From assembly GCA_038330175.1 (NCBI GenBank), contig JBBQNS010000004.1, positions 67 through 64,066 of the forward strand: a stretch of 64,000 nucleotides of DNA, in the 5' to 3' direction. This document shows positions 4,071-43,857 of this stretch, in pieces. The position numbers and the translations under genes are program-made. The stretch comes from Kiritimatiellia bacterium. Lineage in GTDB: Bacteria > Verrucomicrobiota > Kiritimatiellia > CAIKKV01 > CAITUY01. How positions within the stretch are numbered: the stretch's first letter is position 1; each line of letters begins with the position of its first letter. Under the pieces are notes generated by a model. That model had not been told where the DNA came from. It made no database searches and saw nothing but the letters and a program-made list of their open reading frames with translations.

Positions 4071-4252
4071 TTTCAATCTCCCGTGTTTATCCGAACCCGT
4101 CCACCGCACCATGCGGCGAGACGACCAATACTGCTTTCGTTAAGCTAACAACCCTACGGGAAGAAAGAAACGTGATTTTAAAAGAGGACAATATTTGTCG
4201 TGCGGAGAAAAGAAATTAGCATTAAACTTCTAACAAATTGGGAGACGATAAC

Positions 4253-6328
4253 ATGACGCAACAAACAAGCCATAAGCCACGAAAAGCCAACCGGCTGGCG
4301 GGAGAAAAGTCGCCCTACCTCCTACAGCATCAATATAACCCAGTGGACTGGTTTCCTTGGGGTGACGAGGCCTTTGCCAAGGCGCAGTTCGAGAAAAAGC
4401 CGATTTTCCTGAGTATCGGCTACTCAACGTGCCATTGGTGCCACGTCATGGAACGTGAGTCCTTTGAGAACGAAGAGACCGCTCACTATCTCAACGAACA
4501 CTTCGTGAGCATCAAAATCGATCGTGAAGAACGGCCGGATCTTGACCGAATCTATATGACGTTTGTGCAAGCGACCACCGGCCAAGGCGGCTGGCCTATG
4601 AGCCTTTTCTTGACGCCCGACTTGAAACCCTTTTTTGGGGGCACCTATTTTCCACCCACGAGCCGCTCCGGCCTCCCCGCATTTACAGATTTGTTAAAGC
4701 AAATTCAACAGGTGTGGACGACGCGTCGAGACGACTTACAACGTTCAGCAGAGACCATCGTCCAACAGCTTCAAGAAGCCGCCCAGCAACAGGCAACTGA
4801 CGAAAGCCCCCTCTCGCAGGCGCTCCTTGGTGTAGCCGCCAACGGGCTAAAACGCGCTTACGATTCGCAAAACGGCGGATTCGGTCAGGCTCCTAAATTC
4901 CCGCATCCAAGCCAATTACTCTTTCTCCTGGGCTATGGTGCGGAACAGGGTGATGAAGAGGCCCTACAAATAGTTCTGAACACCTGTGACAAAATGGCGA
5001 ATGGAGGGATATTCGATCAGCTTGGCGGCGGGTTTTCCCGGTACGCAACAGATGAAAAGTGGCTGGTTCCCCACTTCGAGAAAATGCTTTATGACAATGC
5101 CCTTCTCACCCACGTCTATCTGGAGGCCTTTCAAGCAAGTGGTAATTCGCGATACGCCGAAATCGTCCGAGCAACCTTAAACTACCTTCTCCGAGATATG
5201 ACCGCCCCCGCAGGAGGCTTCTATTCAGCTGAAGATGCTGATAGTGAAGGCAAGGAGGGAAAGTTTTACTGTTGGACCCTTGCGGAAATGAGTGATCTCC
5301 TTTCCCCGGCAGAACTCAAGGTGGCCGTACGCTATTTTGGAGTGACCTCTGAAGGCAACTTCATAGACCATAGCGATCCCGATCCCCTGCCAGGACAGAA
5401 TGTACTCAGCGTTGTTTCCCCCTTCTTAACGGAGGCGGACGGGAAGCTCTTGGCCTCGGCAAAGGAGAAAATGTTCGACGCGCGAACGCACCGAACGCGA
5501 CCACACCGTGACGACAAAATCCTGTCCTCATGGAACGGCTTGATGCTGGGTGCACTAGCGCAAGCCTACGGGGTGTTAGGCGACAAAATCTATCTGGATG
5601 CGGCCCAAAACAATCTGGCTTTTTTGCGTCATCATCTTTGGGATTCGTCGAGCCAGACACTCTATCATCGCTGGCGGGAAGGAGCCCGGGATTCCGTCCA
5701 GTTGCTTAGTGCCTATGCTTTTTTGCTTTCCGGAGTGATTAACCTATATGAAGTCACGCTAGAGCCCGATACCCTCAACTTTGCGGTAGAACTAGCCGAT
5801 GCCATGCTGGATAAGTTTTTCGATCCAGAAAACGGTGGGTTCTGGCAAAGCGGAAAAGAAAGCCGCAATCTCATACTGCGAACCAAAGACGATTACGATG
5901 GAGCGGAACCCTCCGGAAACTCCGTAGCCACAATCGGGCTGCTCAAGTTGGCAGAAATTACCGGACGCGATGATTTGATGAAGGCTGCTGAGAAAACCCT
6001 GCGCCTCTACGCTAAGCGCCTGCAGGAGCAGCCCGAGGCACTGCCACATCTGCTTATTGCTGCAATGAGGGCGCTGGGAAAGCGCCACAGGATCGTGATC
6101 GCGGGAGATGTCAAGTCGGGCGTGGGTCTCGAACTCCTTCGTGCCGCACATGCGGTATACCACCCCTCCCAGGTCATGCTCGGAACTGCAGGGCCAGTCG
6201 ACTCCTTTGCGCGCAGCCTTTCCGCAAGGGATGGGAACCCTGCTACCTACGTCTGCGAGGGAACTACCTGCCGTCTCCCTGTAACTTCGGCAGCAGCACT
6301 CCGTAGCAGCTTGATGGCAGGCGCATGA
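4253..6328 (+). CDS. thioredoxin-domain protein, YyaL/DUF255 family (N-acylglucosamine 2-epimerase-like C-terminal (alpha/alpha)6 domain)
   Basis: N-terminal thioredoxin-like region (..[20 protein letters not shown]..) followed by a long alpha/alpha-barrel region. An ATG at 4253 has a GGAGA SD; the ORF-track start at 4238 is a TTG. Confidence 0.8.
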
Positions 6329-6363
6329 CAAATTTCTTCGATCACTTTACTAACGACGTTTAC

Positions 6364-6639
6364 CCTCCTCCTCGCTGCGCGTGAGGACACGCGCAGCTAC
6401 ACCAATGCAATACGCACCTTTCGTTTGGCCCCTTGTAGCGGCGCATGTCCCCATGCGCCGAATTCTCTAGCAGCGTGTCGAACTTGCACAGCCTTCGGAC
6501 TCAAAAGTCACCACCGGCGGAGACCGCCGGCTCCAAAAATTTAAAGCGCGGGCTATGCTAGGTGAATTAAGCAATGGGCAACATGTGACGCTTGATTGCT
6601 GGCGCAATTTTATTCTGGAGCCGGCGGTCTCCGCCGGTA
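6364..6639 (+). repeat. structured ~280-nt repeat, copy 1 of 2 (direct repeat with 10419-10697)
   Basis: About 90% identical to copy 2. It contains the hairpin gctgcgcgtg-agga-cacgcgcagc, the hairpin cggcgcatg-tcccc-atgcgccg, and two self-palindromic arms accggcggagaccgccggctcca / tggagccggcggtctccgccggt about 80 nt apart. Confidence 0.85.
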
Positions 6640-6799
6640 GTCCTCCCCAGGGCTTGGACAGCCTCAGCCTCAACTGATTGACGGTCACCATCGACTCTGC
6701 CGCCCCAGTCCGCTCGTCGTGATGCGGTACCAACCACCCTCGATATTATGCCTGATCGATCTAACCATGCCAGTTTCACTCGACCCACTGAGGCTCCGA

Positions 6800-8086
6800 T
6801 CAGGGAGCGCAAAAGCGGTAGAAACGGACCGGAGCGTTTGTCCACTGTGTGTCGCTGAAATAGGATAAACCGGCGGTCAGAGTGTTGGTGCTCAACGGGA
6901 ACCAAGCTGGTGTTGCGAGATTGGAACAAGCCTGAACAACGATATTCACGTTGGTGGGACCGCTGATGGTGAAGCCGAAGCCATTTTGACCCGCACCGAA
7001 GAAACCATCGTTCTCCGCATGCGGGTTCCATAGGATGGTCTGACGATCACAGAACGTCACGTTCCACCCCATGGTTTCCGACATGTAATAGACTGTCGCA
7101 TTTTCAGAACTCGAAAAGACCGAAAGACCTGGATTCGGGGCATCCCCTTTGAAATAGACTTCCTTCATGTTGCCACATGCTTCGAATGCAAAGTCCCCAA
7201 TGCTGGAGACGCTGTTGCCCATCGTGACGCTGGTCAGTTCGTAACAACATCGAAACGTATTCACCCCTATACGTTTGACGGAATCAGGAATCGTGATGCG
7301 AGTTAGGCCGGTGCATGCGGAAAAAGCTTCGTCACTAATATTGGTGACGCTCGAAGGGATGACGATACTGGCGAGGCTAGAACACATAGAGAACGCGAAG
7401 TCCCCAATATTAACAACGCTATCGGGAATAGTGACGTTGTTTAGACTGGCGCATCCTTCAAAGAGATAGTTTCCAAGATTTGTGATGCCGAAGGATATTG
7501 TGACGCTGGTCAGGTTGGGGCAACGAGAAAACACGGCGATCCCAATGGACTTAACGTTCGAAGGAATCATCATGGTGGACATGCCGCAGTAAGAGAAAGC
7601 ACCATCCCCAATACTAACGACACTCTCGGGAATTGTGATAGCAGGCAGATTGATGCAGCAGAAAAACGTATTTTCACCAATGCTGGTCAAGTTGTTGGGA
7701 AGCATCACGTTGGTCAGGCTGATACACTGATAAAATGCAGAACCCCCAATGGTGGAAACGTTCGAGGAAATCGTAACATCTGTCAGATTGGCACAATCAA
7801 AGAAAGCACCACTTCCAATATTGGTGACACCGGCTGGAGTTGTGTAGCTGCCCGCTTTGCCTCCAGAACATTGGATTAATGTTGTTTGGTTTTGATTGAA
7901 CAGAACCCCATCCACGCTGCTATATGTAGAGTTCAGAGCATCCACTGTTATCGCATTGAGGGTGCTACACGAACGGAACGCGCCGCCCCCGATACTGCTG
8001 ACGGTTTCGGGGATCGTGACATTGATCAGGCTGGCGCATCCAAGAAACGCGCCACTCCCGATGCTGGTTATGCCGTTAATGACGAT
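6800..8086 (-). pseudogene. BspA-family leucine-rich-repeat surface protein, 5'-truncated (no signal peptide)
   Basis: Repeated ~23-aa LRR units (..ITSIGDGAFSYC..LTSVTI..) typical of BspA-like LRR proteins. The N-terminal ~85 codons of the called ORF are antisense to the methyltransferase fragment and do not look like a leader. Confidence 0.55.
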
Positions 8087-8095
8087 TTCGTCGAC

Positions 8096-8866
8096 CGCGA
8101 AGACGCCTGGCGCCATTCCAAGTCGTGCGACTTCATGTTCCGCCTCCTCCAATTGGCCAAACGCCTCCTCGCCCCCGATGGCGCCATCTTTGTCTCGATT
8201 GATGATAACGAGGGATTTACTCTCGGTATGCTCATGAACCGGGTGTTCGGGGAGGCTGCTCATGTGGCGACCTGCGTCTGGCAGAAACGCTACTCGCGCG
8301 AAAACCGCGGGGCCATTGGCGATGCGCACGAATATCTATTGGTCTATTCGCCGCAACCAGACGCATTCCAGGAGAGACGGGGCAGAATCCCCCTTACAGA
8401 TAAGCAGCGAGCGGTTTACAAGAATCCCAACGATGACCCGCGTGGACTATGGCAAAGCGTTTCACTAACCGCACAAGGGTTTCGGCCTAACCAAATGTAT
8501 GAGATTGTAGCGCCAAATGGCAGAAAACACCGACCTCCTGAAGGAACTTGTTGGAAGGTTATCGAAAGCGAGTATCACAAGCTCGTTTCTGCGAATCGAA
8601 TATATTTTGCCAAGAATGGTGACGGCGTTCCCAGACGTATGCATTTTCTATCCGATGCAGAGGGTCTCGTTCCGTGGACGTGGTGGCCACATGAAGAGGT
8701 GGGACATACTGACGAGGCACGGAAAGAAATACGTGAATGGCTGGAGACCCAGACCGCCTTTGAGACCCCTAAACCGGTGCGGCTACTAGAACGAGTGTTG
8801 CAGATTGGTGCGCCAGATAAGGATGACCTTGTCCTCCTGGACCGCCCTGCAGTTGATCCATCGTGA
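8096..8866 (+). pseudogene. type III R-M Mod-like (beta-class N6-adenine DNA methyltransferase) fragment lacking DPPY and FxGxG motifs
   Basis: It matches the Mod region immediately after motif IV (..LLAPDGAIFVSIDDNEGF..FGEAAHVATCVWQKRY..) and the region just before motif I (..ETPKPVRLLERVLQIGAPDKDDLVLLD). It terminates before any F-x-G-x-G. Confidence 0.6.
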
Positions 8867-9450
8867 GCAGGTGGCTCCTTATGACGCAAGTGGCGCGGTT
8901 CCTTGATACGCTTTTGGCACGGCATCCCGAGATGCTGCGTGCGGCGCAACGTGCCGCTCTGGCGACGACGCAGGAGGTCAGCCTTGCGAGTGCCTTGCCC
9001 GCCGAGCTTATTTCAGACACCGGCCTCACCTCCTCCGCAAGGAATATCTACGGCGTCTATCCGGATGGGTTGAATAGTTGGGAACGCGCCTTCGCGAACT
9101 GGCTCGATGGCGATGACCTCGGGATCGTGCAGTGGTGGCATCGGAATTTGCCGCGGTTACCGTGGTCAGTGAACGTGCCACGACCTGATGGGCGGGGCTT
9201 TTATCCCGATTCCATCGTCGGCATTAACGGCCGCAAGACCGAAGAGCACGCCTTGCTGGCCGATCCCAAGTGGGGGTTCGACCGTCAGGACGAAGCACAA
9301 AAGGCAGGTGCCCGCCATCCTGCTTACGGGAACGTCCTGGTTATGTTCCGTGACCGGGAGATTCGCTGGCAGGTGGTTCGCTATGATGCGGCACAGGATC
9401 GCGCTTACGCTGACCGCGAGTTTTTCCTGAGCGACGCGGCAGGGGTCTAG
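8863..9450 (+). pseudogene. restriction endonuclease (Res-like) C-terminal PD-(D/E)xK nuclease-domain fragment
   Basis: Motif series S.E..FA.WLD.., ..V.WWHRN.., GFYPDSIV, ..DPK. resembles the C-terminal nuclease domain of type III/I restriction subunits. There is no helicase region upstream. Confidence 0.45.
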
Positions 9451-9563
9451 CGGGCATTGCTCCACGTATTTTTCGTTGCCAGTCAAAGAGCGTTCATCAA
9501 TAACGATTGCTTGCGCGGGTCCATTTTGCTTCACTGTATACAAATCAGGAGATCGTATACAAC

Positions 9564-9860
9564 ATGAAAACATTGACCATATCCCTTCGCCTTAGCTCCG
9601 ATGAAGTCGCGCTATTGGATCAGGCGGCTAAACACGACGGCCTGGACCGGTCTTCCCTGCTAAAACGCTTCCTTAGGCGCGGTCATGCTGATTATCGATA
9701 TGAAACGGCATGTACAGCCTATCGACGGGGCGAAGTCACCCTGTCCCGTGCGGCCGAAATCGCGGGCATGAGCGTCTACGACCTGTTGATCCGGTTCCCG
9801 GAGTCGGGGCTCCAACTCAATCTCACAGCCGACGATCTCCGCCGGGAATTGGCCTCATGA
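9564..9860 (+). CDS. antitoxin, UPF0175-family (RHH-like N-terminus)
   Basis: MKTLTISLRLSSDEVALLDQAAK.. plus a C-terminal UPF0175-like segment (TLSRAAEIAGMSVYDLL). There is an AGGAG SD at 9547. Its stop overlaps the start of the downstream PIN-like gene (ATGA). Confidence 0.7.
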   Translation: MKTLTISLRLSSDEVALLDQAAKHDGLDRSSLLKRFLRRGHADYRYETACTAYRRGEVTLSRAAEIAGMSVYDLLIRFPESGLQLNLTADDLRRELAS

Positions 9861-10351
9861 ATGTCGTTGTATCGGATGCCTGCCCGATCATCTTTCTGGC
9901 TAAACTGGATCGACTGGCCTTGATCCAAGCCGTATTCCCCGGAACGATACTGTTGCCGGCAAGCGTTCAGCGCGAACTCACACAGAAGACCATTCCCTCC
10001 GCTGAACAACGCCGTATCCGGGACTGGCTCATGCACTGCCGCGTGGAGACGGTTCGGAGTTCCCTGTTTCCTGCCTTGGCACTGAGCCTGGCGGACCGGC
10101 ATGTCCTGACCTTGGCAGCGAAACACCCGAACGCGATCATTCTGACGGACGACAGCCTCATGTGGCGTATCGCCTTAGCGGAAGGGTTGCCCGTCGCAGG
10201 TACACTCGGCCTCATGATCCGTGCCGTGCGCGCCAAGCTTGTCACCCAGCCAGACGCCCTCCACGCCATTGACGAACTGGTCACGCAACATCAGCTCCGG
10301 GTTTCCGTCGACCTCTACCAGGAAGCCCTTCGCCAGATCCGACAAGGATGA
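9857..10351 (+). CDS. PIN-like toxin, DUF3368 family
   Basis: Internal Met MNVVVSDACPIIFLAKLDRL... is coupled to the upstream antitoxin. UPF0175/DUF3368 is a recognised antitoxin/toxin pairing. Confidence 0.65.
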   Translation: MNVVVSDACPIIFLAKLDRLALIQAVFPGTILLPASVQRELTQKTIPSAEQRRIRDWLMHCRVETVRSSLFPALALSLADRHVLTLAAKHPNAIILTDDSLMWRIALAEGLPVAGTLGLMIRAVRAKLVTQPDALHAIDELVTQHQLRVSVDLYQEALRQIRQG

Positions 10352-10418
10352 ACGGCTCGAAGAAGCACATCGTAACGTATTACGCATGTTTGCCCTGTTG
10401 CGCAAAAGACTGAGGATC

Positions 10419-10697
10419 CCCTCCTCCTCCCTGCGCGTGAGGACACGCGCAGCTACACCAATGCAACACGCACCTCTCGTTCGGCCCCTTGTAGCGGCGC
10501 ATGTCCCCATGCGCCGAACCCTCTAGCAGCGTGTCGGACTTGCACAGCCTTCGGACTCAACAGTCACCACCGGCGGAGACTGCCGACTCCAATGATTGAA
10601 AGCGCAGGCTATCCTCAGTGAATTAAGCAATGGGCAACACGTGACACTTGATTGCTGACGCAAATTTTCTTCTGGAGCCGGCGGTCTCCGCCGGTAA
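10419..10697 (+). repeat. structured ~280-nt repeat, copy 2 of 2
   Basis: Direct repeat of 6364-6639 with the same internal hairpins and inverted arms. Confidence 0.85.
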
Positions 10698-10773
10698 CAC
10701 CTTTTTCAAGCGATTCGTTGCGCATAACGCATTTGCAGTTATGCGCAGAGAATAATAGGCCGCGCATTTAGGG

Positions 10774-12066
10774 CTAATAAAGCTCTTGAGCTTTAGCCAC
10801 CGTGGCTTTGATGCTTCCACGCTTATTGGCGACGAAGGTAGCGGCCCGACTCCCCAATGCATTTCGCATGGGTTCATCTGCAAGTAACTGGTCCAGCTTC
10901 TCATGAAGTTCTGCCTCCGACCCAACCTGAAGCAAGGCATCGGACTCCTTAAATTCGCGAACAATATCGGCGAAGTTCTCCATATTGGGGCCGACCACTA
11001 CGGGACGTCCACACACCGCAGGTTCAATAATGTTCTGCCCACCATGCTGTGTCAGGCTTTTTCCAATAAAAATGACCGTAACCGCCGTGTATAGATGCTT
11101 CAATTCGCCCGTGGTATCAACCAACAGCACACCGGGTGTGTCGCCCGCTGACAAAGAGCCGCCTTTACTCCGCTGAACGAACATAAGGTTGCGCCGTTCA
11201 ATTAAAGCGACCACCTCATCCCGACGCTCAGCGTGGCGCGGGACCAATATCAATTTTAGATTAGGGAACTTTGTCTTTGACTGAAGATAATAATCGAGCA
11301 AGACGTCTTCTTCACCCGGCCAGGTAGACCCGCCCAACAAGATCAAATCACCGGGCACCATGTGTGCAGCTGCAAGAATCGCTGTGGCGGCTTCCAGACT
11401 GCCAGGATCCTTGAGCGCCACATCATACTTAGCGCTTCCGGTCTCCTGAACGCAGCCTGACCTCGCTCCAAGCGTCAGATAGCGGGCTTGATCCTGCGGC
11501 CCTTGAACACACAGATGATCCACCATCCGTAGCAATGGCGTGAATAACCAGCGATAGCGATAATAGCCCTTGAAAGATCGATCCGACATACGCCCATTAA
11601 TTAACAGTACCGGAATGGCTCGGTCCTTGCTGAGTCGGATCAAATTTGGCCAGAACTCACATTCCGTCAAGACCAGCATCCGGGGCTTCAATAATCCCAA
11701 AACCCGCTTGATAACCCAGGGAAAATCGACGGGGAAATAGATCAGCACGTCATCCTTATTTAAAGCCTTGGCCGCAAGGGTATGCGCCGTGGACGTGTTA
11801 ACACTCAGCACGAAAGCCATATCAGGCTGGAGTTGGCGCCATTCCTCCATGAAGCGAAGCGCTACATAGGTTTCACCTACACTTACCGCATGAACCCAAA
11901 CGCGGGAGCGTTCATTGATATGCGCCTTCAGAGCATCATCATAGTTCCCTAACCGCTGCATGAAGCCTTTGGCATAGCCGCCCCGTCGGCACATCCGCAG
12001 CAAGAAATAAGGCAACATCGCCAAGAACAAAATTGGAAATAATAAATTATAAATCAGCCAAATCAT
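10774..12066 (-). CDS. waaA: 3-deoxy-D-manno-octulosonic acid (Kdo) transferase
   Basis: 430 aa with an N-terminal membrane anchor and WVHAVSVGE motif, and GT30/KdtA-like overall. Confidence 0.85.
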   Translation of the reverse strand: MIWLIYNLLFPILFLAMLPYFLLRMCRRGGYAKGFMQRLGNYDDALKAHINERSRVWVHAVSVGETYVALRFMEEWRQLQPDMAFVLSVNTSTAHTLAAKALNKDDVLIYFPVDFPWVIKRVLGLLKPRMLVLTECEFWPNLIRLSKDRAIPVLLINGRMSDRSFKGYYRYRWLFTPLLRMVDHLCVQGPQDQARYLTLGARSGCVQETGSAKYDVALKDPGSLEAATAILAAAHMVPGDLILLGGSTWPGEEDVLLDYYLQSKTKFPNLKLILVPRHAERRDEVVALIERRNLMFVQRSKGGSLSAGDTPGVLLVDTTGELKHLYTAVTVIFIGKSLTQHGGQNIIEPAVCGRPVVVGPNMENFADIVREFKESDALLQVGSEAELHEKLDQLLADEPMRNALGSRAATFVANKRGSIKATVAKAQELY

Positions 12067-25360: not shown

Positions 25361-25456
25361 ATTTTTATTTCGTCCTTCACCATATACCTCTGAGCCGCTG
25401 AATCAGTGAGCCCCTAATTTATAAGGTCAATAGTCTTTCATACAACAACTAAAATC

Positions 25457-25607
25457 AGCAGTTCTCATTATGGACCAGTTCGATCAATCATTCTCGGAGC
25501 GGAACGTGTAAACGTTCCGGAAATGCCCGGAATCGTCAACCACCTTCGTCAAGCTTCGGCGTGTCATGCCGATTCCGCTCCAAAAAAAATCATAATGATA
25601 ATTCACT
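25457..25607 (+). repeat. structured intergenic element family 4, copy 1 (carries a 32-nt insertion relative to copy 2)
   Basis: Shares about 110 nt with 31607-31728, including the perfect palindrome CGGAACGT-gtaa-ACGTTCCG (25500-25519) and nested inverted repeats gagcggaa/ttccgctc and ctcattatg/cataatga. Confidence 0.8.
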
Positions 25608-31606: not shown

Positions 31607-31728
31607 CAGCAGTTCTCATTATGGCCCTGTTCGATCAATCTTTCTAAGAGCGGAACGTGTAAACGTTCCGGAAATGCCCGGAATCGTCACCGATTCCGCT
31701 CCAAAAAAGTCATAATGACAATTACTGC
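31607..31728 (+). repeat. structured intergenic element family 4, copy 2; flanked by 9-bp direct repeat caacgcggg (MITE-like)
   Basis: Contains the same palindrome CGGAACGTgtaaACGTTCCG (31651-31670). Imperfect terminal inverted repeats cagcagttctcattatg / cataatgacaattactgc. caacgcggg lies on both sides (31598-31606 and 31729-31737). Confidence 0.7.
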
Positions 31729-37142: not shown

Positions 37143-37913
37143 TCAGATAATTGCGTTCGATGCGGTATCCCGTTTTTCAAGCACCAGCCCGATCACATCC
37201 GCCGGCCGTCCCTTTGTGTATCCATTCCCGATCCTCTTCCGGGGCCATTGGAGATCCAATCGCCCAACCGGAAACAAACCGGAGTCCCATACCAGTGAAA
37301 ACGGATCTGCTTCACAATAGGTCACAAATATCTCAACATCCATGGTGACGATCAGGCGTCCCCCTGGCTTGAGGACACGCGCCATCTCCTGAATCCCCTT
37401 CCTCGCCGTCGCCTCTTCAACGTGCTCAATATCGCTGAGGCAAAACACACGGTCAAACGAACTATCCTCAGTGGCAAGATGATCCATCCCACTCTTCTGG
37501 ACTTTCAGCCCTGTGCGCCTGAGGAACTCTTCATCCACACCAAACGCCTTATGACGCGTCCCGCAGTCAAACACATCAGGATCAAATCCCGTTACATCGC
37601 AATGAGCCTCCCGCTCCAGATAAATCGTAAAAGGCGTTCGCCCGCAACCGAGGTCCGCGCACGTCATCCCCGCTTCCAGACCCGCAGATAAAATAGCATA
37701 AGGAAACTCCCAGTACCGAGATCCATAAACCTGGGGTTGCGCATAAAGTTTGGCGGACCAAGGGTAGCACTGCTCATTGACATCCTGATGATCCGACAGA
37801 TCAAATTCTCTATTCAGTGCCGACATGATGTCGTTAATTTTTTGAAATCGAGGCGAAAACACTTCACCGGTGGTTGCAAAACGTGAGCCAACATCAAAAG
37901 TGTCATCCTGCAT
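37143..37913 (-). CDS. class I SAM-dependent methyltransferase
   Basis: Motif I ..CADLGCGRTPFTIYL.. and post-I acidic residue. The start is trimmed to MQDDTF, overlapping the wzt stop. Confidence 0.7.
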   Translation of the reverse strand: MQDDTFDVGSRFATTGEVFSPRFQKINDIMSALNREFDLSDHQDVNEQCYPWSAKLYAQPQVYGSRYWEFPYAILSAGLEAGMTCADLGCGRTPFTIYLEREAHCDVTGFDPDVFDCGTRHKAFGVDEEFLRRTGLKVQKSGMDHLATEDSSFDRVFCLSDIEHVEEATARKGIQEMARVLKPGGRLIVTMDVEIFVTYCEADPFSLVWDSGLFPVGRLDLQWPRKRIGNGYTKGRPADVIGLVLEKRDTASNAII

Positions 37914-41217: not shown

Positions 41218-41525
41218 CCTGCATTAAACCTGAAAATAAATACCGCAATTATTCCCCCCTTACTTATTATTCATAACTATATATCATTCCGATATTTGCA
41301 ACAAGGCTAAAAGGGTATGTTTTCTATACATTTTTCAGGGCAGTCATGTCGATGTCGATGTCGAGGAACGAGATGCAAAAGTTCCAGCCACAGATGATGC
41401 AGGGGCGTATAATGTTCTGGTCGGCATACAGCGCATCAAAATGTCACTGATCGAGTGTAATACACGCTTTGTGGACAAGCCTTAGCAGCGAGAGTATTTT
41501 CATACGCAACAACAGGAAAAAAAGC

Positions 41526-42017
41526 ATGCCCCTTACCAACAATGATACATTTAAAAGGCTTCGTTATAATCTAAACCTGAACGATAACAAGCTTGTCGAG
41601 ATTTTCAGGCTGGGCAACTTACCTCTTGATCGCGAGGTGATCCAAAATATGATGAAAAAAGACGGCGAGGAAGGATACATCGCGTGTTCCGATGCGGTGC
41701 TCTCCTCTTTCCGTGACGGTCTAATCATCAAGCGCAGGGGGAAGCGTGAGAATGCGCCACCGGCTGTATATAATTCCGAGTTTTGTCTGAGCAATAATGA
41801 CATCCTTAAAAAGCTGCGTATCGCCCTTGAATTAAAGGAAGATGATGTACTGGCTCTCATGAAAAAGGCAAAAATAGATATTACGCGCTCCGGGCTCAGC
41901 GCTCTGTTTCGTCAGAGAGACCACAAAAACTACAAACCTTGCGGAGATCAGTTCCTGAGAAACTTCATAGCGGGGCTGAAAGATCTGTATAATAATGAAG
42001 TCCCCCTCGTACATTGA
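41526..42017 (+). CDS. DUF1456 (YehS-like) protein
   Basis: Two tandem DUF1456-type repeats (..NDTFKRLRYNLNLNDNKLVEIF.. and ..NNDILKKLRIALELKEDDVLALMKKA..). Confidence 0.65.
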   Translation: MPLTNNDTFKRLRYNLNLNDNKLVEIFRLGNLPLDREVIQNMMKKDGEEGYIACSDAVLSSFRDGLIIKRRGKRENAPPAVYNSEFCLSNNDILKKLRIALELKEDDVLALMKKAKIDITRSGLSALFRQRDHKNYKPCGDQFLRNFIAGLKDLYNNEVPLVH

Positions 42018-42606
42018 TGTCGATGTGAGCGCGATTTCCGGGCTCACACATAACTGCTTCGGATGCCCAAGCACTGACGCCTGCTGTTGCGCCCGATATG
42101 AAGTGTGCGTCAGCAGGAGGGAAATGGAAACCATTACAGGTTTACTCCCGCATGTCGTGAAATTCTGTCCCGGATTGAACGGGAAGAAGGGTTTTGACAA
42201 TGTATTCGATGAGGTTGAGCGTGGCTTGTTTGCCATTGATACGCATGAAAATGGACTTTGTGTGTTTGCTTACAAATACAAGTCGGCCATTCGTTGTTCT
42301 TTGCACAGCGTGGCCGAACAATTAGGCAAATCCGCTCACCTGCTTAAGCCCTATGCCTGTACCCTCTGGCCTCTGGTACTGCGTGAGCCTCCGCATGCGG
42401 CTCTATCTATCTGTGACGATGCCCTGCAACTCCCCTGCAATAAAGCGTGTAAGGAGAAAGGAACCATTTCGCCCGAGATACTTGACTCGATCACGAAGAT
42501 ATTCGGTGTAAAGGCAAGTGATCAGATCAGCAGGGCCGCCCGGAACAAACTACCCACCACCAGAGTACGGTTAAGCGGTCCCGTTGGGCGACCTTCATTG
42601 ACGTAA
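41995..42606 (+). CDS. Cys-rich DUF3109-like protein
   Basis: Multiple CxxC/CC clusters (..HNCFGCPSTDACCCARYEVC.. ..LPCNKACKEK..). The assignment is tentative. Confidence 0.4.
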   Translation: MKSPSYIDVDVSAISGLTHNCFGCPSTDACCCARYEVCVSRREMETITGLLPHVVKFCPGLNGKKGFDNVFDEVERGLFAIDTHENGLCVFAYKYKSAIRCSLHSVAEQLGKSAHLLKPYACTLWPLVLREPPHAALSICDDALQLPCNKACKEKGTISPEILDSITKIFGVKASDQISRAARNKLPTTRVRLSGPVGRPSLT

Positions 42607-42756
42607 AAGAAATTCACCAGCCGCGCTCTTCCCGCTGCGCCTGTGAGGACACAGGTGCCTACACTTGCTTCGCTCTCTCGTTGTCGCACTCTGCTCACTA
42701 CACGTGCTCGCTCTCTCTTGTGTAGTAGCGGCTGTCCCCAGCCGCGCTCTTTCCGC

Positions 42757-43689
42757 TTAGATCAGTCGGGTCCCCTGGGAGTCGACGGTAGTGACCCAGC
42801 TTTTGGAGGCAATTCCCAGGGAATTGAAAGTCAACACCATTTGTTTTTCAATAGCCCGCGCCTTTTGGAGGTTGTCAGTAATGGCAAACACCGTGGGGCC
42901 AGATCCCGAAATGGTAACCCCATCGGCGCCTGCTTTGAGTGCATTTTTCTTTACCAGATCAAAGCCCGGGATCAATTTGGATCGGACGGGTTCAACAATG
43001 ACGTCGTTCAGGCATCTTGAAAACAGGGAATAATCATTTTTGGCAAAAGCGGCCGTGATCAGCGCCGTATTCGCCATATTCGCAATAAAAGACTCCATGG
43101 GAACTTGGCTGGGCAACATCTTGCGCGCTTCACGGGTCAGGACAACAACGTTCGGAGTTACCAGTACGATTTTCAAACTTCGGATGGAGCCAATTCGGGT
43201 AACGTCCAAGGGAACGCAACATCGGGTTAGGGTCGCCCCGCCCATCAGCGCGGGTGCCGTATTGTCCGCAAAAAACCCACCTGAGACAACGGCTTCAGCC
43301 TCTGTAGCTGCCAATATGAGTTGTTCCAGGCTAAGTTGAGCCCCATAAAGGATATTCGCGGCAAAAGCGCCTGCTGCAGCAGAGGCCGCGCTTGAGCCTA
43401 GTCCGGAGCCGATGGGTAATCCCTTGTATAGGGTAATCTCAATTCCGCCCTTGATATTGAGATATTTAAAAACATTTGCCGCGGCCAGGGCGGCGGTATT
43501 TTTCTTGGGGTCTGCAGAAAGCGGAACCGGCGAATGAACCGCCGCAATACGGATTTTGCCGCCCGACAAACGACGCGCCTCGACAACATCCCCGAGATTT
43601 TTAACCGCAAGCCCCAAAACATCGAAGCCAGGCCCGATATTTCCGATCGTTGCAGGAGAAAACACTTTGATCTGTTTCATGGCGCTCAT
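42757..43689 (-). CDS. thrB: homoserine kinase
   Basis: GHMP kinase motif ..LPIGSGLGSSAASAAAGAFA.. The start is ambiguous (43689 or 43680). Confidence 0.85.
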   Translation of the reverse strand: MSAMKQIKVFSPATIGNIGPGFDVLGLAVKNLGDVVEARRLSGGKIRIAAVHSPVPLSADPKKNTAALAAANVFKYLNIKGGIEITLYKGLPIGSGLGSSAASAAAGAFAANILYGAQLSLEQLILAATEAEAVVSGGFFADNTAPALMGGATLTRCCVPLDVTRIGSIRSLKIVLVTPNVVVLTREARKMLPSQVPMESFIANMANTALITAAFAKNDYSLFSRCLNDVIVEPVRSKLIPGFDLVKKNALKAGADGVTISGSGPTVFAITDNLQKARAIEKQMVLTFNSLGIASKSWVTTVDSQGTRLI

Positions 43690-43857
43690 CTTCACAAGGA
43701 GCGCATCACGCCGCAATCAAAAATTTTAGCCTTGTTTGCTGTTGTCTTGAATCATTGGATTCCAGTATATTAGCGGCTCATTTGTCTCAATGAGGAATAT
43801 ATTATTAGCCTGAAAAATAAAGAAATTCTTGATTATCATGTTGGTGGCAAAATCGGC

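Follow-up and report, generated by a model that had tools for sequence, protein, structure and literature searches.

Why should a hairpin-rich stretch of intergenic DNA occur twice, in nearly the same form, on either side of a block of decaying defence genes? This question is raised by a contig of a Kiritimatiellia bacterium (GenBank assembly GCA_038330175.1, contig JBBQNS010000004.1), of which a stretch of 64 kb, hereafter the window, was analysed. Near one end of the window two direct repeats of 277 and 278 nt bracket a 3.7-kb cassette, and the first-pass annotation had proposed for them either an uncharacterised structured non-coding RNA (ncRNA) gene duplicated by island integration, in the manner of attL and attR, or a non-autonomous mobile element whose two copies had captured or scrambled the DNA lying between them. 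Our results point elsewhere: each repeat is likely to consist of four clustered repetitive extragenic palindromes (REPs) from the GTAG-tagged superfamily, an arrangement similar to that of the bacterial interspersed mosaic elements (BIMEs) of enterobacteria. What could pass for a sizeable structured RNA gene, or for the attachment site of an island, would then be a cluster of REP palindromes, which as such is not to be pursued as a new ncRNA. A cluster of the REP/BIME type is a known kind of structure, encountered here in a poorly studied phylum, since REPs have barely been described in Verrucomicrobiota, where one paper concerns them, on Opitutus terrae (PMC3733652).

The repeated unit and its hairpins

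The two copies of the unit stand in direct orientation and are 92.1% identical over 278 aligned positions (BLAST E = 5e-111), which bears out the first estimate of repeats of about 280 nt and about 90% identity. They differ by 21 substitutions and 1 indel, and their homology breaks off sharply at both ends. The ends of the unit read AGTCACCACCGG ... CCGGTAGT / CCGGTAAC; compared with each other (CCCTCCTCCTC... / ...CCGCCGGTA) they do not form inverted repeats, and no target duplication is seen in the flanks. The left flanks of the two copies are unlike (TTTA vs GATC), so that the copies have no target site in common.

Each unit contains four tagged hairpins, named A1, A2, B1 and B2 (Table 1). 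In all of them a T precedes a tetranucleotide tag and a perfect hairpin follows the tag directly: A1 and A2 combine the tag TGTAG with 9-bp stems and the loop TCCY, B1 and B2 the tag TGGAG with 7-bp stems and the loop TCT. The perfect hairpins described at first reading were recovered (GCTGCGCGTG-AGGA-CACGCGCAGC at 6374-6397 and CGGCGCATG-TCCC-CATGCGCCG at 6439-6460), and so was a pair of self-palindromic arms (6510-6538 and 6613-6641; complementarity 93%, separation 74 nt). These arms, of 29 nt each, are the B hairpins themselves and occupy the right-hand half of the unit (6510-6641); B2, at the right end, is the only arm that abuts an end of the unit. Because the four hairpins follow one another in the order - + - +, A1/A2 and B1/B2 constitute tail-to-tail (TT) dimers, with their tags inside, and A2/B1 a hybrid head-to-head (HH) pair, with its tags outside. 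The tags are separated by 34 nt in the A1/A2 dimer and by 82 nt in the B1/B2 dimer, and the A1-A2 pair is predicted to fold into a single long stem. Of the 22 differences between the copies, 2 fall in the 94 nt of the hairpin cores and 20 in the 183 nt outside them, a contrast whose Fisher p value is 0.009 with boundaries that were drawn post hoc and 0.11 with wider boundaries.

Table 1. Coordinates of the repeated units, their hairpins, the genes of the cassette and the third dimer (positions in the window)
Feature	Position	Strand	Remarks
Repeat unit, copy 1	6363..6639		277 nt; four tagged REP-like hairpins, clustered
Repeat unit, copy 2	10419..10696		278 nt; 92% identity to copy 1
Hairpin A1	6375..6400	-	GTAG-CTGCGCGTG-TCCT-CACGCGCAG, 9-bp stem; identical copy at 10431-10456
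Hairpin A2	6435..6460	+	GTAG-CGGCGCATG-TCCC-CATGCGCCG; identical copy at 10491-10516
Hairpin B1	6514..6534	-	GGAG-CCGGCGG-TCT-CCGCCGG; version in copy 2 at 10570-10590, with 2 substitutions
Hairpin B2	6617..6637	+	GGAG-CCGGCGG-TCT-CCGCCGG; identical copy at 10674-10694
BspA-type leucine-rich repeat (LRR) protein gene, 5'-truncated	6800..8055	-	homology starts at ~8055, at the start of the Mod fragment
Type III Mod DNA methyltransferase, internal fragment	8060..8836	+	profile positions ~99-350 of 542
Res-like open reading frame (ORF)	8863..9450	+	homologue of the C-terminus (~165 aa) of DEAD/DEAH helicases
UPF0175 antitoxin, intact	9507..9860	+	
DUF3368/PIN-like toxin, intact	9857..10351	+	
Third A-type tail-to-tail dimer, diverged	42637..42745	both	tag and loop as in A1/A2, stems differ

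Tagged hairpins of this kind are not confined to the two units. Scanning the window for a tag followed by a perfect hairpin returned 14 cases, against 1.8 in shuffled sequences; nine of the 14 are of the A or B type and are spread over three intergenic loci, namely the two units and a locus at 42.6 kb, all of which lie between convergent genes. A related hairpin motif had been noticed at 42640-42700; it is present and extends to an element of two hairpins (minus strand, TGTAG-GCACCTGTG-TCCT-CACAGGCGC; plus strand, TGTAG-TA-GCGGCTG-TCCC-CAGCCGC), located between the housekeeping genes at 41995-42606 (+) and thrB at 42757-43716 (-). Its minus-strand hairpin, at 42663, pairs in 8 of 9 stem positions, whereas the remaining A-type stems in the window, of 7-9 bp, are perfect; this tenth hairpin of A/B type was detected by the tag-plus-loop screen only (see below). 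Occurrences of TGAGGACA at 37370 and 16494 were discarded as chance matches, lying inside coding sequence and having no hairpin.

The folding of the unit was compared with that of dinucleotide shuffles, giving z = -6.5 and -6.6 on its two strands. Such equality is the signature of DNA palindromes and not of a strand-specific RNA. Rfam matched only a tRNA-Pro when the whole window was scanned at gathering thresholds, so that no family was assigned to the repeat, and scans of copy 1 and of the 42.6-kb element with permissive E-values yielded noise, the best score on the unit being 16 bits vs a gathering score of 50. A comparison of the copies as RNA yields a single compensatory pair, along with some wobble changes, in the B spacer, which is too little to count as covariation. 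An ncRNA gene is not supported by these results, its supposed structured parts being short palindromes that are individually widespread. A fragment of a protein-coding gene was rejected, given that the unit contains no open reading frame, every one of the six frames being interrupted by stops, that the copies differ by an indel, that the ORFs overlapping the unit have no Pfam match, and that a six-frame query against 5.8 billion proteins gave 0 matches, a search which presupposes that spurious ORFs were annotated as genes. The hairpins are not followed by a U-tract, a terminator scan of the window gave 8 hits for 4.3 +/- 2.2 expected, thus no enrichment, and promoter/terminator and composition scans were uninformative.

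Comparison with known REP families

The GTAG REPs were characterised by Di Nocera et al. 2013 (PMC3733652) as stems of 6-13 bp closed by loops of 2-4 nt and preceded by an unpaired GTAG tag, with variants. They form HH dimers (tags outside), TT dimers (tags inside) and hybrid dimers with spacers of 20-100 nt, and 'segments of flanking DNA' are part of their clusters. Their preferred sites are intergenic regions of the convergent and unidirectional kinds, intragenic in-frame copies occur, and the verrucomicrobium Opitutus terrae has these REPs in abundance (PMC3733652). Most of the defining features of REPs that can be tested here are present in our hairpins. As in GTAG REPs and enterobacterial BIMEs, each is a G+C-rich stem-loop of 21-26 nt carrying an unpaired GTAG-type tag at one foot. 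Likewise the stems are of 7-9 bp and the loops of 3-4 nt, the hairpins form inverted dimers (TT here, HH in other genomes) with spacers of 20-100 nt, the clusters alternate in orientation and lie downstream of ORFs between convergent genes, sub-families are related by compensatory stem changes, copies occur in frame within genes, and the host group, Verrucomicrobia, is one in which these REPs occur.

A second likeness is to the systems formed by REPINs (two inverted REPs with their spacer) and their REP-associated tyrosine transposases (RAYTs), in which the two REPs and the spacer form a larger hairpin and one REP sequence is present across many related lineages (Bertels & Rainey 2011, PMC3116915; Nunvar et al. 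2010, PMC2817692). The REPINs described so far are mostly from Gammaproteobacteria; in contrast to them, two different dimers are joined here and their spacers are conserved between copies. The present hairpins also depart from families GTAG-17 to -19 of O. terrae in the peptides that their intragenic copies encode (e.g., PAREDTRRYT in L025, one of the loci fetched from outside the window, which carry L numbers), and on this comparison, made by encoded peptides only, they probably represent further families in the GTAG superfamily. By analogy with other REPs, the hairpins would be non-autonomous elements, and a RAYT transposase (TnpA-REP, of the HUH/Y1 type) encoded elsewhere in the genome would recognise them as single-stranded DNA. 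Once transcribed, they might act as 3'-end stabilising or insulating structures for the converging genes.

Related hairpins in other genomes

The distribution of the A hairpins was followed with a 25-nt degenerate pattern drawn from A1 and A2 (TGTAGCKGCGCRTGTCCYCAYGCGC), searched in a collection of species-representative genomes. It matched 22 loci in about 20 metagenome-assembled genomes (MAGs), all from Verrucomicrobiota (Chthoniobacterales, Udaeobacter, Spartobacteria) or from a Lentisphaerae MAG. Nearly all 22 loci have an inverted partner hairpin 10-30 nt away, with the tags outside (head-to-head), and the partner is typically GCGGCTG-RGGA-CAGCCGC followed by CTACA. The 27-mer of A1 that runs from the T before GTAG to the end of the 9-bp stem recurs identically in one of these MAG loci (L014). 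None of the loci has two matches to the pattern, and thus none carries the A1-A2 pair. The surrounding 8-kb MAG loci contain additional tagged hairpins that differ in their stems. Those with the GTAG tag number 54 over 143 kb, and 51 of these have the T in front; up to 7 tagged hairpins (GTAG, GGAG or GTGG tags) occur per 8 kb. The presence of identical TGTAG REPs of 25-27 nt across distant MAGs of Verrucomicrobiota and Lentisphaerae bears on the idea of a very long persistence of REPIN-RAYT systems.

The 21-mer of the B arm was found in 49 metagenome contigs, of which most derive from sludge and digesters; it often has several occurrences on one contig, and inverted partners that end in CTCCA accompany it. 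A small number of matches in coding sequence of high G+C content look like chance. The composite unit of 278 nt and its B spacer were not found elsewhere, with 0 matches in metagenomes (searched with a 22-mer from the 74-nt B spacer), 0 in plasmids and 0 in viral contigs.

Whether the stems are conserved as structures was examined without circularity, by picking sequences from the window and the 22 loci on the tag and loop at fixed spacing only. This tag-plus-loop screen gave 40 matches where about 3 are expected, and pairs were counted on the 14 distinct types: 80% of cells are paired vs 67% in shuffles, the covariation score is 0.30 vs 0.09 in shuffles, a value reached by 0 of 500 shuffles, double-sided changes affect 5 of the 9 stem pairs, and pairing falls to 20-46% in slid registers. 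The stems are maintained by compensatory change beneath a fixed tag and loop.

Two further observations were made on these loci. In several sludge and digester contigs (L041, L043, L055, L058, L062 and others) the TGGAG hairpin often stands within short tandem repeats (GTGGGTCGT, GGTGGAAG, CGGTGATCGGTGA), which points to a single uncultured lineage whose intergenic DNA is very rich in repeats. In L025, REP dimers at 1663-1730 and 2044-2108 lie in frame within an ORF of 1040 aa resembling a 2-oxoacid dehydrogenase E1/E2 fusion and are translated into linker peptides such as GVEAAVPSRKEPVPAREDTRRYT; L014 and L030 resemble it in the flanking sequence. Intragenic REPs known from O. terrae offer a parallel.

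How two copies came to flank the cassette

For the arrangement around the cassette we favour, at about even odds, recombination at a REP cluster that was already in place. The two copies would be paralogues of one cluster, separated when foreign or rearranged DNA joined at it, the cluster itself serving as the homology; the route might be a single crossover of the Campbell type or a duplication that took in the cluster and the DNA beside it. Afterwards the copies would have diverged by about 8%, the type III restriction-modification and LRR genes would have been truncated, and only the addictive toxin-antitoxin pair would have stayed intact. A local event is favoured because the copies lie 4 kb apart in direct orientation, because no other composite or spacer was found, and because copy 2 lies at a break in synteny.

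The last point comes from a comparison with relatives on long contigs. In those with 80-81% identical KdtA, kdtA is followed by an NmrA-like gene and the nuo operon, either directly or after pfkB, and copy 2 lies exactly at the synteny breakpoint with respect to them; no repeat was seen at their kdtA loci. In relatives whose YyaL is 71-73% identical to that encoded next to copy 1, DUF1456 or another gene follows yyaL, and no REP cluster was seen at their yyaL loci. Since the closest relatives show 71-81% protein identity and are rearranged, no empty site is definable, and look-ups of the exact YyaL and toxin proteins returned no closer strain on record.

Rearrangement at REPs has precedents. 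REPs are known as targets of insertion sequences (ISs; cited in PMC3733652). The likeness here lies in a REP cluster at a synteny breakpoint with two copies around a foreign-looking block; the differences are that the block itself is not duplicated and contains no IS, and that the event here is inferred, not reconstructed. Tandem duplications with a REP at the join point, for their part, are said to have been reported by Shyamala et al. in 1990. With a REP cluster at a synteny breakpoint around a decaying defence island, the locus would be another case for REP clusters as hot spots of recombination or insertion.

Alternative explanations

Several observations weigh against the reading of the units as REP clusters separated by recombination. 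The tag of the B hairpins, GGAG, is outside the variants listed for GTAG REPs (PMC3733652). The long conserved spacers have no counterpart elsewhere, and a generic REP cluster leaves them unexplained. Searched by tblastn with an approximate E. coli RAYT query and by scanning six-frame translations for the HUH...Y motif, neither the window nor ~450 kb of fetched loci yielded a RAYT gene, the source genome not being among those scanned. RAYT genes are usually single-copy, so that their absence from these sequences means little. As no empty site was recovered, the recombination scenario rests on arrangement and proximity only, and the 8% divergence could also fit two members of a dispersed composite family.

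This last possibility, that the whole 278-nt unit is one composite non-autonomous element moved by an HUH/Y1 transposase (a REPIN, or a palindrome-associated element of the PATE type derived from IS200/IS605), is the alternative that deserves most attention, although we hold it to be unlikely. It could have inserted independently into neighbouring intergenic regions, or the pair of copies could have mobilised or captured the cassette. The sharp bounds of the homology on both sides would suit such an element, as would spacers conserved together with the hairpins and ends resembling those of IS200/IS605, with hairpins placed 11 nt from the left end and 2 nt from the right and with neither terminal inverted repeats nor target duplication; a second, unrelated small dispersed repeat in the window indicates moreover that this genome propagates small elements. 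Yet only two copies are known, 4 kb apart, no further composite or spacer turned up in metagenomes, in the six-frame query of 5.8 billion proteins, in plasmids or in viral contigs, and the A1-A2 pair is missing from the 22 loci of the genome scan. The differing left flanks (TTTA vs GATC) reveal no shared target site, and the hairpins at the two ends are of different families and opposite orientation. Among the options first put forward, a non-autonomous mobile element thus came closest, except that the unit is a cluster of four hairpins and not one element with its own ends; that the copies captured or scrambled the intervening DNA is shown by nothing we observed. The related hairpins, at 42.6 kb and in the 22 loci, sit in ordinary intergenic or intragenic sites with no insertion beside them, which counts in part against the interpretation first proposed. 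A bolder version, in which two REP dimers and their conserved spacers form a functional module and the repeated pair marks the ends of a unit that is moved by an HUH/RAYT enzyme and carries or captures the 3.7-kb cassette, appears very improbable to us; if true, it would be the first gene-cassette movement by a REP/RAYT system. A transposable element of the miniature inverted-repeat class (MITE) was excluded by the absence of inverted repeats at the unit ends and of a target-site duplication.

Integration of an island into a structured ncRNA gene, with duplication of its 3' part as attL and attR, would account for the direct orientation of the repeats around defence-type and toxin-antitoxin genes and for the patchy G+C content of the cassette (46-61%), but of all the explanations it has the least to recommend it and we regard it as hardly credible. 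The cassette (6640-10418) has neither an integrase nor an excisionase, no Rfam family, tRNA or tmRNA offers a target at the repeats, repeats of 278 nt with 8% divergence are unlike att repeats, and many unrelated loci contain the short palindromes that make up the structured parts. The tyrosine recombinase located beyond kdtA scores as XerC/XerD (XerC, 312 bits; integron integrase TIGR02249, 122 vs a cutoff of 265) and adjoins kdtA in relatives too. An integron was also discarded: imperfect palindromes of ~130 nt, about 90% alike, do flank a cassette with a toxin-antitoxin pair as attC sites would, but no RYYYAAC/GTTRRRY core sites exist at the ends, IntI is absent, the recombinase being XerC/D-like, and the cassette, unlike those of integrons, consists of five genes or gene fragments in both orientations. 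It is, finally, improbable in our view that the hairpins are protein-binding or terminator sites evolved in place, that their likeness to REPs is convergent and that the two copies are a plain segmental duplication. All loci of the window lie between convergent genes, stem covariation fits any structural role, and RAYT was not found in the window or the fetched loci, as such sites would have it; set against this are the missing U-tracts, a terminator scan without enrichment, and sequences of 25-27 nt with an unpaired TGTAG tag that are identical in distant MAGs and occur even in frame within ORFs, a behaviour typical of propagating REPs and not of locally evolved terminators.

Genes around and between the copies

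A yyaL-like gene with a thioredoxin domain (4238-6328, +) stops 34 nt ahead of copy 1, and the convergent LRR ORF (6800-8329, -) has its stop 160 nt beyond that copy; copy 2 follows the stop of the DUF3368 toxin gene by 67 nt and precedes that of the convergent kdtA (10774-12066, -) by 77 nt. The content first assigned to the cassette holds for the LRR fragment, the Mod fragment and the intact UPF0175/DUF3368 pair, which matches the PADLOC candidate system PDC-S70 end to end (9507-10351). The Res fragment has no match in profile libraries; its homologues among helicases, through their C-terminus, are on plasmids, one that was checked follows a DNA methyltransferase gene, and a Res remnant is therefore plausible, as far as these homologies can tell. 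The LRR homology from ~8055 and the Mod fragment from ~8060 indicate that both genes are cut at one junction, where they are truncated head to head and where long overlapping ORFs are artefacts of the join. The junction was probably made by a single deletion or an illegitimate join.

Other small repeats in the window

A direct repeat of 23 nt (TCMCCAGCCGCGCTCTTYCCGCT) brackets the dimer at 42.6 kb (42614-42636 / 42735-42757, 91% identity, spacing 121 nt); its second copy overlaps the 3' half of the dimer hairpin, and it could be the footprint of an origin of the dimer by local duplication. The same region differs in gene order from a relative whose YyaL is 71% identical: in the relative DUF1456 directly follows yyaL (L080 8219-8707, corresponding to 41469-42017), and in the window the two are 35 kb apart, each with an A-type REP element a short way downstream (34 nt from yyaL, one gene beyond DUF1456). 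The arrangement points to a rearrangement, or to a 35-kb insertion, that has REPs near both ends.

The second dispersed repeat mentioned above, unrelated to the REP units, occurs in intergenic DNA at 25456-25600 and 31607-31720, with 83 nt at 94% identity within an overall length of ~115-150 nt. Its ends are short and inverted (CATTATG / CATAATG), and it further contains a GGAG-tagged hairpin in its interior (GGAGCGGAACGTGTAAACGTTCCG) and a long-range pairing (GGAGCGGAATCG / CGATTCCGCTCC), with an insertion of ~31 nt in the 25.4-kb copy; it looks like a MITE or a REPIN. Between kdtA and copy 2, outside the repeat, a perfect 10-bp palindrome at 10719-10747 (TGCGCATAAC-9 nt-GTTATGCGCA) may be the terminator hairpin of kdtA. 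A public Logan contig of 2.7 kb from the same organism, identified by an exact KdtA match (L001), stops at position 10718 of the window, beside this palindrome and not at the repeat.

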